From Escherichia coli (GTDB lineage Bacteria > Pseudomonadota > Gammaproteobacteria > Enterobacterales > Enterobacteriaceae): a stretch of DNA of 64,000 nucleotides. Position 1 is the stretch's first letter; every line of letters begins with the position of its first letter. The stretch lies in assembly GCF_003019035.1 (NCBI RefSeq), contig NZ_CP027447.1, one strand, 5' to 3'. The notes beneath the pieces are model-generated. The model had not been told where the DNA came from and ran no database searches. It saw only the letters and a list, made by a program, of their open reading frames with translations. Shown one piece after another: positions 12,018 to 26,022 of the stretch. Made by a program: the position numbers and the translations under genes.

Positions 12018-12024
<7 letters not shown>

Positions 12025-12629
12025 CAGAACAACAACGTCGCGAACTGGACTGGGAAAAAACCGACGGACTGCTGCCGGTGATTGTGCAACATGCGGTATC
12101 CGGCGAAGTGTTAATGCTGGGCTATATGAATCCAGAAGCCTTAGACAAAACCCTAGAAAGCGGCAAAGTCACCTTCTTCTCGCGCACTAAACAGCGACTG
12201 TGGACCAAAGGCGAAACGTCGGGCAATTTCCTCAACGTAGTGAGTATTGCGCCGGACTGCGACAACGACACGTTACTGGTGCTGGCGAATCCCATCGGGC
12301 CAACCTGCCACAAAGGCACCAGTAGCTGCTTCGGCAACACCGCTCACCAGTGGCTGTTCCTGTATCAACTGGAACAACTGCTCGCCGAACGTAAATCTGC
12401 CGACCCGAAAACCTCTTACACAGCCAAACTGTATGCCAGCGGCACCAAGCGCATTGCGCAAAAAGTGGGCGAAGAAGGCGTAGAAACCGCACTGGCAGCA
12501 ACGGTACATGACCGCTTTGAGCTGACCAACGAGGCATCTGACTTGATGTATCACCTGCTGGTATTGTTGCAGGATCAGGATCTGGATTTAACGACGGTAA
12601 TTGAGAACCTGCGTAAACGGCATCAGTGA
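12018..12629 (+). CDS. hisI: bifunctional phosphoribosyl-AMP cyclohydrolase / phosphoribosyl-ATP pyrophosphatase
   Basis: 203 aa; last gene of the his operon. Confidence 0.9.
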
Positions 12630-12641
12630 GTTGCGGGGTAA

Positions 12642-12706
12642 GCGGATGCGATGTTGTTGTCGCATCCGGCAAAATAAATATCCTCCGGCATAGCCGGAGG
12701 TTTTTC
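12642..12706. terminator. bidirectional terminator region after hisI (two hairpins)
   Basis: hairpin GCGGATGCGA..TCGCATCCGC, then hairpin CCTCCGGC-ata-GCCGGAGG followed by TTTTT on plus and a T-rich run on minus. Confidence 0.55.
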
Positions 12707-12729
12707 AAATGCGCCTATAAGGCTCTCTT

Positions 12730-13437
12730 ACCAGCCGCGCCCTAACAGGCGCACACGATCTGACATTTGCATCCAACTTCGTTACTTACGGCCCGTAAAC
12801 GGGCTGCCCGGATAGGGAATCGATAACTGCTCTCCCATTTTATCCTCTTCAAGCTGGTGCTTTATGTAATCCTGTATCTTCGCCGTGTTCTTACCCACCG
12901 TATCGACGTAATACCCTCTGCACCAGAACTCCCTGTTCCTGTATTTGAATTTCAAATCAACAAACTGCTCGTAAAGCATTAGACTGCTTTTCCCTTTCAG
13001 ATATCCCATAAAGCCGGATACGCTCATTTTGGGCGGGATCTCCACAAGCATATGGATATGATCTGCACAGCATTCAGCTTCCAGAATCCGTACACTTTTC
13101 CACTCACACAGCTTTCTCAAAATACAGCCTATTGCTCTACGCTTCTCTCTGTAGAACACCTGTCTTCGGTATTTTGGCGCAAATACTATGTGATATTTAC
13201 AGTTCCATCGGGTGTGCGCTAAGCTCTTTTCGTTCCCCATTGGGACCCCCTTTTGATTTCTTGTTTGACACTTGCAGTTGCCAGACCGCAAGGTGTTTTA
13301 ACAAATCAAAAGGGGTTTTAATAACTGGCTCAAAGCTGAAAGCTTTCCGGAACCCCCAGCCTAGCTGGGGGTTTTCTGTGCACAAAAAAACGGGCAAGGT
13401 GTCACCACCCTGCCCATTTTCTTTAAAACCGAAAAGA
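12730..13437 (-). mobile_element. IS200-family (IS200/IS605) insertion sequence, about 0.7 kb; ends approximate (+/- 15 bp)
   Basis: single Y1/HuH transposase gene plus the characteristic structured end (hairpins AACCCCCAGCCTAGCTGGGGGTT and GGGCAAGGTGTCACCACCCTGCCC at 13365-13430) upstream of tnpA; no terminal inverted repeats expected for this family. Confidence 0.7.
12782..13240 (-). CDS. tnpA: IS200-type Y1 (HuH) transposase TnpA
   Basis: 152 aa from MGNEKSLAHTRWNCKYHIVFAPKYRR...; HuH motif (HIHMLV) and C-terminal catalytic Tyr region (YIKHQ). Confidence 0.85.
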   Translation of the reverse strand: MGNEKSLAHTRWNCKYHIVFAPKYRRQVFYREKRRAIGCILRKLCEWKSVRILEAECCADHIHMLVEIPPKMSVSGFMGYLKGKSSLMLYEQFVDLKFKYRNREFWCRGYYVDTVGKNTAKIQDYIKHQLEEDKMGEQLSIPYPGSPFTGRK

Positions 13438-14421
13438 TTACTTCACGTTGTAATTACGCAGAGCGTTACGCCCCAACACAATCCCCGCGCCCACCATACC
13501 GCCCAGCAGCACTGCCAGAATCAAGGTGATTGCTTTCTTCGGGCTATCGCGACGAATTGGCAGTGTGGGTTTCATAACGTAACGGTAGGCATGAATATCA
13601 AGATCATCAACCTTCAGACTTTCGATATCCAGCAGGTTTTGACGAGTCTGATAATAGTTTGGCGAGAACACAAGCGGACGAGTCGCTTCGTGCTTAATCA
13701 TCGACCCCAGTGCTTCGCTACCTAACAAAAGCAACGTGTCCTGAGTAATATTTTCACCAGTCTGCTGAATCTGCGGCTTTGTTACCTGCGCCTGATTCGC
13801 ATACTGCAACGCTTCCTGAATCTGGCGGATACGCAGCGTTTTTTGCTCCTGAGCCACCACTTCCTGAGTTTTCAGGGAATCCTGCAATGTTTTCATGCCC
13901 AACGCAATATTATCCTTCAGGTCCTTTTCCAGCTCTTCATTCACTCGGTCATCAACTTGTTGAATGTATTCAGCCAGCTTTTTCTGTGCATCCGCCGCCG
14001 TTTTCCCAACATAAGAAACAGCTAACGGTAACGGCTGGTTTTTAACAGCGGGCTCGATGGTCAGTTTTTCGCGTTCTTCCTGATTATCCAGCGTTTCCGC
14101 TAATGCAGAGAAAGCGGAACTGAAGCGACCAATCAACGCCTCCTGTAAATCAGCTACTTTTGGCGCAGCCTGGCCATAAATTACATTCATGGCGTTGTTA
14201 TAGCCGGCAATTTGCCCCACATCAGGTTGAGTGACAATGGCTGTTGATGTCCATTGCTCTTTCGCTACTGCCAGGTATCCAATAGCCAACACGATAGCCA
14301 CAATGACTGTGGCGATAATGGTCATCTTACCGCGCCACAGTTGTACCAGTAAATCAATTAAATCAATCTGTTCCGGGTCATTGTTGTGCCCAGAAATATT
14401 ATTATTTTCAACTTTCATCAT
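13438..14421 (-). CDS. wzzB: O-antigen chain-length determinant (polysaccharide co-polymerase 1)
   Basis: 327 aa, N- and C-terminal TM segments flanking a long coiled periplasmic region; adjacent to ugd as in E. coli. Confidence 0.85.
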   Translation of the reverse strand: MMKVENNNISGHNNDPEQIDLIDLLVQLWRGKMTIIATVIVAIVLAIGYLAVAKEQWTSTAIVTQPDVGQIAGYNNAMNVIYGQAAPKVADLQEALIGRFSSAFSALAETLDNQEEREKLTIEPAVKNQPLPLAVSYVGKTAADAQKKLAEYIQQVDDRVNEELEKDLKDNIALGMKTLQDSLKTQEVVAQEQKTLRIRQIQEALQYANQAQVTKPQIQQTGENITQDTLLLLGSEALGSMIKHEATRPLVFSPNYYQTRQNLLDIESLKVDDLDIHAYRYVMKPTLPIRRDSPKKAITLILAVLLGGMVGAGIVLGRNALRNYNVK

Positions 14422-22594: not shown

Positions 22595-23728
22595 TTAACG
22601 CTCCAGAGAAACCGAAACATCATAACCATGGCTTTTAAGAAGTGCATGTTGTTTCGCTTTTAACAAATCGCTAGCAACCATTTCTGCACACATCTCTTCA
22701 ACTGTAATCTCTGGTTCCCAGCCTAATAGATTTTTTGCTTTTGCAGGGTCACCTAAGAGTGTTTCAACTTCAGCAGGACGGAAATAACGAGGATCAACCC
22801 GAACTATAACGTCTCCAACATTTACACCAATAGCACAATCGGAAATTTTATTAACTACTGTGGCTATCTCATCTACACCCTCACCAGAGAATTCAAGTTC
22901 AAGTCCGACTTCTTTAGCAGCCATACGGACAAATTCACGCACAGATATCTGTTTACCTGTGGCAATGACAAAATCCTCTGGATGATCTTGCTGAAGCATC
23001 ATCCATTGCATGCGAACATAATCTTTAGCGTGTCCCCAGTCACGCAACGAATCCAGATTACCCAAATATAAGCATTGTTCGATCCCCTGAGAAATATTAG
23101 CTATTGCACGAGTAATTTTACGGGTAACAAAAGTTTCTCCACGGCGTGGCGATTCATGGTTAAAAAGAATACCATTACAAGCATATATACCATAAGATTC
23201 ACGGTAGTTAACTGTTATCCAGTAAGCATACATCTTAGCTACAGCATAAGGCGAACGCGGGTAGAATGGAGTTGTTTCACGCTGAGGAATCTCTTGCACT
23301 AAACCAAAAAGTTCTGAAGTAGATGCTTGATAGAAACGTGTTTTTTTCTCCAGCCCACAGATTCGTATTGCTTCTAATAAACGTAATGTCCCTATTGCAT
23401 CTACATCTGCTGTATATTCTGGTGACTCGAATGACACTGCGACATGGGATTGTGCACCAAGGTTATAAATTTCATCCGGTTGAATTTCTTGGATTAAACG
23501 GATCAGATTCGATGTATCTGTTAAATCCCCATAGTGTAAAATAAAATTAGGCTCATCAACGAATCGTGATTGATATATATGATCAATTCTATCAGTGTTA
23601 AATGACGATGCTCGGCGTTTTATACCATGTACTTCATAACCTTTTTCAATAAGAAATTCTGCAAGATATGAACCATCTTGTCCAGTTACGCCTGTGATAA
23701 ATGCAACTTTTTTATTCATTTTAATCAT
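22595..23728 (-). CDS. gmd: GDP-mannose 4,6-dehydratase, O-antigen cluster copy
   Basis: 377 aa, [16 protein letters not shown] motif; paralogue of the colanic acid gmd; true start may be the internal Met (MNKKVAF). Confidence 0.85.
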
Positions 23729-23737
23729 GTTATGTTC

Positions 23738-24769
23738 CTAAATATTCAACTCATTATAAACTTTAATCGTTTCATTAACACATTTTGACCATGAAAATTT
23801 TTGCGCCTGCAGTAAACCTCTTTCGATCATAACATTTCTTTTTAAATTAACTAATTCTAAAGCTTCTTTTAACGTAAACTCATTAATATCATCAATATAA
23901 ATAGGCGCATTCCCCCCTACTTCCGGCAACGAGGATGTGTTTGCACAAATAACTGGACATCCGGCCTGCATAGCTTCTAGGACAGGTATTCCAAACCCCT
24001 CATAACTGGAAGGGTAAACAAGTGCATATGCAGTATTATACTGTATATTTAAATCTTCATTACTCAAAAATGTAAAATGTTCATATCTATTTTTTAAATA
24101 TTTTTCAAGGAGTTCTCTTTCATATTTTTTAAGCGAGCCTCCGCCTACAATTGTAAGCTTTAAGCCATGTAATTTCCCTACAGCTTTGACTGCAAGAACG
24201 AAATTTTTATAACCTTCTCTGGCACCGACAAACAAAACTGAATTATTTACTCTCATATCAGACATGTTAGAAATATGTTTATATGATGGGGATACACCAT
24301 TATAAATCACTCTAATTTTATCTTCGCTAATTGGACAGTACTTAAGTAAATCTCTAGCAGTGTTGTTTGAAATACAAATTACGATATCACTATTCTTGAT
24401 AGCATGATATTTTTGAAGAGAATGAATAAATTTTGACATTCCTCCCCTGTATTTTTCATAGGTGAAATCATGAACAGTTGTAACATTTTTCACATTCAAA
24501 TTAGGACTTTTATGAACTCGATAATAACTTGAGTGTAAAACCCTAGTTTTAATATCACTTACATTTCTATATCTTTCTAAAATTCTTGGCTTACGATATT
24601 GCAACTTTAAGTCGCTTGTATCAAACTCAAATTCTTTATTTTTATACAATAGAATTTCAGCTTGGTAATTTGATTTCACCATTCCTTGGATCAACTCATT
24701 AAAGTATACACTTATTCCACCAAATGATTGGAGATTATAAATAATCCCATCGATAGTTACCATTATCAT
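23738..24769 (-). CDS. GT-B fold glycosyltransferase (GT4-like)
   Basis: 343 aa; C-terminal region with EGFGIPVLEAM motif characteristic of GT4 retaining transferases. Confidence 0.65.
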   Translation of the reverse strand: MIMVTIDGIIYNLQSFGGISVYFNELIQGMVKSNYQAEILLYKNKEFEFDTSDLKLQYRKPRILERYRNVSDIKTRVLHSSYYRVHKSPNLNVKNVTTVHDFTYEKYRGGMSKFIHSLQKYHAIKNSDIVICISNNTARDLLKYCPISEDKIRVIYNGVSPSYKHISNMSDMRVNNSVLFVGAREGYKNFVLAVKAVGKLHGLKLTIVGGGSLKKYERELLEKYLKNRYEHFTFLSNEDLNIQYNTAYALVYPSSYEGFGIPVLEAMQAGCPVICANTSSLPEVGGNAPIYIDDINEFTLKEALELVNLKRNVMIERGLLQAQKFSWSKCVNETIKVYNELNI

Positions 24770-26022
24770 CGCCCTCGCAAGGTAATACGTTCGATTAGAA
24801 CGAACAATATCAAAAAGAAGATCAGTAACAATACATATGCCGGCCCAGCAAAATAAGTTCCAAATGAAGGTGAAATGAGAATTATAGAAAGCAAAAAAAA
24901 GGATGCAGAGTTCGTAATTACTTTTGCATTAAACATTTTAAGCTTAGCAAAAATATAGCCATAAAAGATATTCATAGGTGAAAGAAAAGTTAAAATGATC
25001 AGTCCAACATATCCATAATCAACAAAATTATCCATCCCTTTTGAAAAAGCAGGTGTATGCCCCGACTCTGCAGCTCCTGGATAATAGATTTCATTTACAT
25101 GCAGAAATCCATATACAAAAGGTTTATCAGGAAACAAACCTCTCGGTATATAAGACCAAAATTGGCTGAAATAGACTGTGCCATTGAAAAACTTAACCAC
25201 ACCTTTATCAATATCTTGTAGCAAATAAATACTGTTTTGATACTGGTCAAAATAAGACAATACTACATCGACATTCATATTTCCAATAGCTAAAAATAAA
25301 TTATAGAGAATGGCACACGCTGCCAGGGGTGTAACTAAAATCAGGCCAAATTTTAGAAATCTAGATTTATTAAGACTTAACACTGCAAGATAAAAAATCG
25401 CAAATGAAAGAATAAAGGTTTTCGATCCAAGAAAAAAAACCAAGGTACAATAGAATATCGCGCATAAAAATAATTTTATTTCCGAGCGTAAAGCCAACGC
25501 CCTGGAAAAATAAGATACCGAAAGCATACTTAAAGAAAAGGCATATAAAACACCATTACCTTCTCGATAGTTTTGATAACCATCCCTGGGATTCGTCAAC
25601 CATCCAGAAATACCTATTTCTGACTTTGAAGAAAGAAGAACAAATAATGTAATAAACAGAACCAATGTAATATTTGATATTCTTTTTAATTTTGTATGCG
25701 AAATTAAGCAAGTTAAATAGATCTCTCTATTTTTGAATGCTATATTAAAAATAAAATAAAAGAAAATTATAGATAAAACACCCACAAAAGAGTATATGTT
25801 ATATATAAATAAAGCCTCATTATAATATTGATTTAAAGCAAAGTCTGAACCGTAGAAAAGAGGAGCCAAAATATTTTCCAATAGAAAAACCGGAAATAAA
25901 ATAATGGCGTAAATGGTAAAGGGATTGATAATTGTAAGTCTTAGCGTTTTCGTCGCTAATAAAGAAAAAGAATAATATAGTACTATAGCTAGTGTAACAT
26001 TTAAACAATATATTATTACCAC
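24766..26022 (-). CDS. wzy: O-antigen polymerase candidate
   Basis: 418 aa, very hydrophobic multi-pass membrane protein with low-complexity AT-rich codon usage, located between glycosyltransferase genes; start codon uncertain. Confidence 0.55.
   Translation of the reverse strand: MVIIYCLNVTLAIVLYYSFSLLATKTLRLTIINPFTIYAIILFPVFLLENILAPLFYGSDFALNQYYNEALFIYNIYSFVGVLSIIFFYFIFNIAFKNREIYLTCLISHTKLKRISNITLVLFITLFVLLSSKSEIGISGWLTNPRDGYQNYREGNGVLYAFSLSMLSVSYFSRALALRSEIKLFLCAIFYCTLVFFLGSKTFILSFAIFYLAVLSLNKSRFLKFGLILVTPLAACAILYNLFLAIGNMNVDVVLSYFDQYQNSIYLLQDIDKGVVKFFNGTVYFSQFWSYIPRGLFPDKPFVYGFLHVNEIYYPGAAESGHTPAFSKGMDNFVDYGYVGLIILTFLSPMNIFYGYIFAKLKMFNAKVITNSASFFLLSIILISPSFGTYFAGPAYVLLLIFFLILFVLIERITLRGR

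Follow-up and report, generated by a model that had tools for sequence, protein, structure and literature searches.

The locus studied here raises the question of what the additional DNA between the his operon and wzzB of an Escherichia coli strain is, and whether its presence affects wzzB. In the window (the whole 64,000-nucleotide stretch of DNA that was analysed), hisI(E), with which the his operon ends (12018..12629, plus strand), and wzzB, which encodes the O-antigen chain-length determinant (13438..14421, minus strand, stop codon at 13438..13440), form a convergent pair separated by an 808-bp spacer. In K-12 MG1655 the hisI-wzzB spacer is 95 bp long and lacks the element, as had been anticipated. 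The original prediction was that an IS200-family element had inserted here and that its end hairpin may serve as the wzzB terminator, with consequences for wzzB mRNA stability and O-antigen chain-length modality.

The window contains an O36-family O-antigen cluster between galF and gnd, and the wzy gene in it is intact (418 aa, 24766..26022, minus strand), so that control of the chain length by WzzB matters in principle. The possibility that a broken wzy makes wzzB irrelevant was ruled out by the same intact 418-aa ORF. As a separate observation, the wzy gene of strain SCU-301 (22777..24030) is annotated as frameshifted with an internal stop, though this strain is 100% identical to the window around the IS. 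The wzy sequences of the window and SCU-301 differ by several indels of 1-3 bp and by clustered substitutions, and this could reflect either assembly errors in SCU-301 or a difference between the strains.

Identity of the inserted element

The minus strand of the spacer contains a 169-codon ORF, the ATG-start form of which encodes a protein of 152 aa (tnpA, 12782..13240). This protein matched the NCBIfam IS200 equivalog NF033573 with an E value of 1e-42 and 145 bits (cut-off 55), and it could be aligned with Y1 transposases of known structure, namely those of IS608, ISDra2 and two Sulfolobus elements, with E values from 1e-14 to 1e-22. The predicted HIHMLV motif occupies residues 61-66, with the HUH residues (HIH) at positions 61-63, and the C-terminal catalytic tyrosine is present as Tyr125; the Y125F substitution yields a catalytically dead IS200 TnpA (Ellis et al., PMC4513863). 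The NF033573 match, HIH, Tyr125 and the structural alignment place TnpA among the Y1 HUH transposases of the IS200 group of the IS200/IS605 family. The only long ORF of the 709-711 bp element is tnpA, and there is no tnpB. The NF033573 match, the Rfam STnc490 match and the alignments with empty sites presented below agree that an IS200-family element lies between the convergent his operon and wzzB, which was the central claim of the original prediction.

The RefSeq (PGAP) annotation of the identical sequence in strain SCU-301 reads 'IS200/IS605-like element IS200C family transposase', and the element of the window is 100% identical to this annotated copy and to the copies in two further genomes. 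Full-length IS200C copies sampled at other loci of other E. coli genomes were mostly 98-99% identical to it, and in 1746 E. coli records the best-matching IS200C copy was at least 99% identical. On the basis of sequence, the element is assigned to the IS200C isoform by proxy, i.e., through the PGAP name of the identical sequence and the near-identical E. coli copies. The element itself is already known as a catalogued IS that is annotated as such in identical public genomes. It shares with the other IS200C copies of E. coli the same 709-bp unit, the 152-aa TnpA and the left-end and right-end hairpins; compared with seven of them, it differs only in two private substitutions, one at position 12960 that results in TnpA G94V and a silent one at position 12980, and in its insertion site. 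Position 94 of TnpA is not conserved among the structural homologues. The ORF is uninterrupted, as predicted, the catalytic residues are kept and no sign of decay was seen. The element is a complete IS200C copy that is probably transposition-competent but normally silent.

That the ORF might be a domesticated, non-mobile gene fixed at this position, as the almost immobile behaviour described for IS200 and the co-option of its 5' UTR RNA as an sRNA in Salmonella (PMC12594629) could suggest, can be dismissed as next to impossible: the site is occupied in only 37 of 5426 complete E. coli genomes and its flanks are contiguous in 3726, the same 709-bp unit is found at many other loci and on plasmids (1-35 places per genome), and both ends of the element are complete with no target-site scar. 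Hence, the ORF belongs to a mobile element, as had been proposed, and the universal presence in relatives that a conserved gene would show was not observed.

Ends and length of the element

The uninterrupted hisI-wzzB region of other strains was used to define the ends of the insertion. Alignment of the window with the IS-free spacers of PEC301, a K-12-like strain, MG1655 and E62 confirmed the insertion and revealed that the inserted DNA, on the minus strand, spans 12673/12675..13383 (709-711 bp). It begins after GCATCCGGC(A)n and stops before AAAAAAACGGGCAAGG. We therefore place the left end (LE) of IS200C at 13383 and its right end (RE) at 12673, which gives 711 bp (12673..13383), or 709 bp (12675..13383) without the two terminal T/A bases. 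The interval 12730..13437, which had been taken for the element, is ruled out by the empty-site alignments, and the other IS200C copies agree that both of its ends are about 55 bp off. The boundary at 12730 leaves out 55-57 bp of the IS including the right-end hairpin, and the boundary at 13437 lies 54 bp too far into native DNA, so that the hairpin closest to the wzzB stop codon was counted with the IS.

All the other IS200C copies examined were co-linear with the window over exactly 12675..13383 (709 bp), and at the yfeD/gltX and yidB/gyrB loci the occupied site corresponded to the empty site plus 709 plus 2 bp. The 2-bp target duplication (AA/TT) that this arithmetic could imply was ruled out by a tandem of IS1541 and by the match to the A9 run of E62. 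In tandem IS1541 of Yersinia pestis the RE is joined straight to the LE, with ...GGAGGATATTTATT directly followed by GTGCCC, which indicates that the two extra T's (A's on the plus strand of the window) belong to the right end and that no target is duplicated. With the 711-bp definition, the joined flanks of the window (GGC-A9-CGGG) equal the empty site of E62 exactly, including the same REP variant. The head-to-tail IS1541 tandem of Y. pestis NCTC5923, in which the left-end motifs are 710 bp apart and ...ATATTTATT abuts GTGCCC at the junction, resembles an integrated circular-junction form.

An uncertainty of about 2 bp attaches to the right-end boundary, as this falls inside an A/T run, which in the empty sites is A7 (MG1655), A8 (PEC301) or A9 (E62). 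This variation among strains of the A run, which in the window is split into 12671..12674 and 13384..13390, indicates that homopolymer slippage is common at the site. If the RE end is taken as TTATT (with the ambiguity of about 2 bp here), none of the three occupied/empty site pairs has a target-site duplication. The element has no inverted repeats at its tips (GTGCAC... and ...TTTATT), and each end has a subterminal hairpin. Thus, like other IS200-group elements, the element is about 700 bp long and tnpA-only, has no terminal inverted repeats and lies 3' of a short target that is not duplicated. Our search for an empty site close to the haplotype of the window found none, the best ones being only about 95% identical over 400-bp flanks. 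Six records were at least 99% identical over the flanks, and these are presumably six occupied genomes.

The native terminator of wzzB and his

The segment between the left end of the IS and the wzzB stop codon contains a bidirectional intrinsic terminator shared by his and wzzB, which lies outside the IS at 13384..13423 (both strands, core stem 13392..13415). It was flagged by the terminator scan, and on the wzzB strand it reads UCUUUUCGGUUUUAAAGAAAAUGGGCAGGGUGGUGACACCUUGCCCGUUUUUUU, with a folding energy of -27.4 kcal/mol (z -6.7) and a T7 tract at 13384..13390. On the his strand the stem is followed by ATTTTCTTT. The G+C-rich hairpin is thus preceded by an A tract and followed by a T tract, and with such tracts flanking its stem it reads as a bidirectional terminator common to the two transcription units. 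A convergent his terminator was reportedly described in Salmonella by Carlomagno and co-workers in 1985. Single-base variants aside, 13384..13437 is kept in every IS-free genome inspected (MG1655, PEC301 and E62).

The IS starts at 13383, directly after the T7 tract, and the last five bases of this tract, TTTTT, constitute the IS target. It had been proposed that a terminal hairpin of the IS, lying within a few bases of the wzzB stop codon, now acts as the wzzB terminator and alters mRNA stability and O-antigen modality. There is indeed a strong hairpin 22 nt past the wzzB stop codon with the IS directly beyond it. However, this hairpin (13392..13415) and its T tract are also found in the IS-free genomes, K-12 included, and hence are older than the insertion, whereas the IS begins only past the T7 tract, and its own LE hairpin is 65-87 nt from the stop codon, behind the intact terminator. 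We therefore regard an IS-derived wzzB terminator as highly improbable.

Since the hairpin and the T7 tract are those of IS-free genomes and the IS lies beyond T7, nothing of the wzzB 3' UTR, hairpin or U tract has been lost. Judging from the sequence, the formation of the wzzB 3' end should be unchanged, as the native terminator stands intact before the IS, and neither wzzB mRNA nor O-antigen modality is predicted to be affected. The DNA just downstream of the T tract, which is now IS DNA, can slightly modulate the efficiency of termination. Transcripts reading through from wzzB would next encounter the left-end terminator hairpin of the IS, the tnpA gene of which points in the same direction as wzzB.

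Structures of the left end, the leader and the right end

Features of the element were numbered from the left-end tip at 13383, the sequence of which is GTGCACAGAAAAC. The LE hairpin, AACCCCCAGC-TAG-GCTGGGGGTT (IS nt 11-33; 13351..13373, minus strand; -18.7 kcal/mol), matches the terminator at nt 12-34 of IS200 that shields tnpA from outside transcription (PMC4513863), and it is presumably also the subterminal hairpin bound by TnpA. Folding further revealed a small hairpin at 13332..13346 and a long stem-loop at 13247..13315 (both minus strand), the latter of which buries the Shine-Dalgarno sequence AAGGGGG and corresponds to nt 69-138 of IS200 (PMC4513863). In the equivalent region of Salmonella IS200 the antisense sRNA art200 and a processed 5'tnpA sRNA have been described (PMC4513863). 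The full-length match to Rfam STnc490 (13250..13373, minus strand) scored 146 bits with an E value of 2.5e-31, and the 143-nt left end folded with -55.4 kcal/mol (z -3.9), in line with the highly structured 5' end noted originally. The STnc490 match, the folds and the positions all reproduce the left-end regulatory architecture of IS200, i.e., the terminator and the stem-loop hiding the Shine-Dalgarno sequence, and the map of the element agrees with the published IS200 map point by point (PMC4513863).

Salmonella IS200 is 707 bp long (Lam and Roth 1983; Ellis et al. 2015, PMC4513863). The STnc490 model matches the window element over its full length, whereas the element differs from Salmonella IS200 in being the E. 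coli isoform, which is 2-4 bp longer, and art200 and 5'tnpA are predicted here from the conservation of sequence and structure. Translation of tnpA would be blocked by the stem-loop hiding the Shine-Dalgarno sequence together with the antisense art200, a mechanism known in Salmonella IS200 and suggested here by sequence conservation. To our knowledge, the invF/SPI-1 target described for Salmonella is absent from typical E. coli. A scan of 12500..13600 for sigma-70-like promoters found none, which agrees with the weak, undefined tnpA promoter that has been reported. We also noticed that Rfam STnc490 matches the tnpA-sense strand, yet STnc490/art200 has been described as an antisense RNA (PMC4513863); the Rfam family seems to model the strand of the 5' tnpA leader. 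The sub-threshold Rfam matches to Ysr202 (30 bits vs 315), psRNA14 (25 vs 60) and mir-7578 (21 vs 60) were rejected as generic hairpin or terminator resemblance.

The RE hairpin has an 8-bp stem with seven G-C pairs (12682..12700; 12682..12705 with T5) and a folding energy of -15.9 kcal/mol, and it is terminator-like on both strands. On the minus strand it is preceded by GAAAAAC and followed by ATATTTATT, which is the 3' end of both tnpA and the IS. On the plus strand it reads CCTCCGGCATAGCCGGAGG-TTTTTC and was flagged by the terminator scan. This hairpin lies inside the segment that is missing from the empty sites and is present in all the other IS200C copies. Together with the LE hairpin it provides the element with terminal structures of the IS200 type.

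The 3' end of the his operon

Having passed the hisI stop codon, his transcripts first meet a native REP-like hairpin (12643..12668, plus strand), which is also present in the empty sites and has no T tract after it, and then the RE hairpin with T5, which is the first terminator-like signal on their way. REP sequences have been reported in the hisI-wzz spacer before (PMC3158064). The element had been described as lying after 'the his terminators', but the second of these, at 12682..12705, is the right-end hairpin of the IS itself. As a result of the insertion, the his operon has lost direct access to the shared bidirectional terminator, which is now 711 bp farther away. From the order of these signals, the his mRNA now most likely ends at the RE hairpin and T5, about 55-75 nt past the hisI stop codon. 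Transcription that continues beyond this point would cross tnpA in the antisense direction and reach first the left-end hairpin, a bidirectional structure according to the description of IS200 (PMC4513863), and then the native terminator. Thus, the transcription unit whose 3' end has been altered is the his operon and not wzzB.

Intrinsic terminators as landing sites of IS200-group elements

The position of the IS at the very end of a T tract has parallels at other loci. The E. coli IS200C copies behind the gltX and gyrB terminators follow the same order of a hairpin, TTTTT(T)ATT and then GTGCAC. We scanned one genome per species (GTDB) for the 20-nt left-end sequence CCCCAGCTAGGCTGGGGGTT (13351..13370 in the window, minus strand) and obtained at least 120 stretches, with exact matches in very distant taxa. 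The hosts of the matches listed include Yersinia, Vibrio, Brenneria, Edwardsiella, Pluralibacter, Oxalobacter, Mailhella/Desulfovibrio and Peptococcaceae, as well as a Bacillota MAG and MAGs of Saccharibacteria and Elusimicrobia; binning artefacts are possible for some of the MAG matches. The 10-13 nt of the left-end tip vary by lineage, though the 20-mer is constant, and this constancy suggests that the hairpin is under strong functional constraint, that the elements have spread widely by horizontal transfer, or both.

Among the matches listed, 93 of the 118 unique upstream flanks (79%) had a perfect-stem G+C hairpin and a T tract ending at the IS tip, and such a combination was found at 30 of 1200 random positions in the same loci (2.5%). 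In most of the remaining flanks among these matches a T tract came after an imperfect hairpin. The five flank bases nearest the IS tip were TTNTT in five sub-lineages with different left-end tips, again among the matches listed; in these, the T content was 94-100% at positions -1, -2 and -4 and 74-93% at position -5, but 20% at the latter position in five Peptococcaceae flanks. These data demonstrate that IS200-group elements land exactly at the end of the T tracts of intrinsic terminators.

The right end of the element closes with the same type of pentamer, TTATT. As the hairpin and TTNTT of the target match the hairpin and TTATT of the RE, a terminator looks like an IS200 right end, and the junction between a terminator and the LE looks like the RE/LE junction of the circular intermediate of the family. 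At the his-wzzB site, a Y1 HUH transposase would have inserted the single-stranded element directly 3' of the T tract of the native wzzB terminator, the target hairpin and TTNTT mimicking the element's own RE hairpin and TTATT. A GAAAA(A)C sequence is conserved 5' of both end hairpins; it may act as a guide in the manner of the IS608 tetranucleotides and recognise the T-rich sites of cleavage.

Elements of this family are known to prefer the lagging-strand template. The wzzB gene of MG1655 maps to 2.097 Mb on the minus strand, a position that we take from the K-12 map to be in the counter-clockwise replichore. With this strand and replichore, the lagging-strand template would be the strand with the hairpin and the T tract, which is also the top strand of the IS, and we infer from the K-12 map positions that the orientation fits insertion into that template.

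TnpA is homologous to the transposases of IS608 and ISDra2 (E values of 1e-16 to 1e-18), which transpose as single strands by 'peel and paste', and the elements have in common subterminal hairpins and the lack of inverted repeats; all insert on the 3' side of a short target that is not duplicated, and all have a short conserved motif 5' of the foot of each hairpin. In contrast to IS608 and ISDra2, IS200C has no tnpB, and its target is TTNTT at a terminator hairpin instead of TTAC or TTGAT. IS1541 of Y. pestis is 87% identical over the full length and has the same left-end 20-mer and the same type of target (hairpin and TTNTT); it differs in the left-end tip, which is GTGCCC instead of the GTGCAC of IS200C, and in its much higher copy number in Y. 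pestis. Group IIC introns, which also home just downstream of intrinsic-terminator stem-loops (PMC7923331), are a functional analogy only, being unrelated retroelements with RNA-based target recognition.

Terminators have been found over-represented upstream of IS200/IS605 elements (bioRxiv 10.1101/2025.07.22.666184), and in view of this statistical association the link between the two is not new in itself. The same preprint sees the association as a niche that limits transposase expression, and one could argue that the adjacency of terminators and IS200 left ends results from the survival of harmless insertions and not from recognition by the transposase, since positions past a terminator are neutral and protect tnpA from read-through transcription. 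However, selection alone would permit any spacing within intergenic DNA, whereas the T tract ends at the IS tip to the nucleotide, and the TTNTT target resembles the TTATT of the RE in five divergent sub-lineages. This makes survival alone an improbable explanation of the adjacency. Mildly new, in our opinion, are the nucleotide-level target rule, the resemblance between the target and the right end, and the probable recurrent use of the his-wzzB terminator. Among the papers that could be consulted, we found none that states the rule, the right-end mimicry or the recurrent use of the site.

Distribution of IS200C and occupancy of the his-wzzB site

Full-length IS200C was found in 2063 of the 5426 complete E. 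coli genomes. Plasmids carry it as well, along with an IS1541 copy of 87% identity. Fragments of about 140 bp that comprise the IS200C right end only (IS nt 571-709, about 92% identity) recur on EHEC-type plasmids, both pO157-like ones and other E. coli plasmids of roughly 90 kb, where they carry no annotated feature; these are probably remnants of old IS200 copies. The one related case that our literature search for IS200 at hisI-wzz brought up was that of an O157 strain, in which an IS200-like element lies between sbcB and yeeF (PMC3158064).

At the his-wzzB site, the position and orientation of the IS did not vary among the occupied genomes examined, although the flanks differed in REP arrangement and wzzB allele. 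The spacer also gathers nested insertions: in 11 genomes (FDAARGOS_1252 and 10 similar ones) an IS4 lies within the IS200C left-end hairpin, after ...CCCCCAGCCTAGCTG, and in Z1323CEC0015 an IS1397 fragment is located in the REP beside IS200C.

The 37 occupied sites probably go back to several insertions that hit one favoured terminator independently. Three haplogroups, with 6-12 differences per 709 positions, can be distinguished among the his-wzzB copies, and the window copy, with only 3 differences, is closer to a copy at the gltX site of an unrelated strain than to any of the others at his-wzzB. Moreover, the A run is split among the his-wzzB copies in three ways (2+7, 1+7 or 0+8), and the strong target rule makes the re-use of one terminator likely. 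The alternative is that all 37 sites trace back to a single ancient insertion, carried from genome to genome by recombination of O-antigen or his DNA. It would account for the identical position and orientation, and the region is a known recombination hotspot; in addition, IS copies within a genome can be homogenised by gene conversion, and A/T runs slip. Set against the haplogroups, the proximity of the window copy to a gltX copy elsewhere and the three splits of the A run, a single insertion appears rather unlikely, although it deserves to be taken seriously.

Implications

Taken as a whole, the explanation that an intact IS200C landed behind the native wzzB terminator, leaving wzzB unaffected and changing the 3' end of his, is very probable. 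The locus is of little importance in itself, as the IS should not alter wzzB or the O-antigen chain length. The identification of the hairpin closest to wzzB as the native shared terminator corrects the earlier reading. The landing of IS200-group elements at the ends of terminator T tracts also explains why their copies are often found 'directly after a stop codon', and annotators should not assign the terminator of the neighbouring gene to the IS. In a broader sense, we see an even chance that IS200-group transposases recognise terminators as such across phyla and that his/wzzB is a hot spot that has been hit recurrently and independently in E. coli lineages. If this is true, each hit would swap the his terminator for the right-end hairpin of the IS and leave wzzB untouched.
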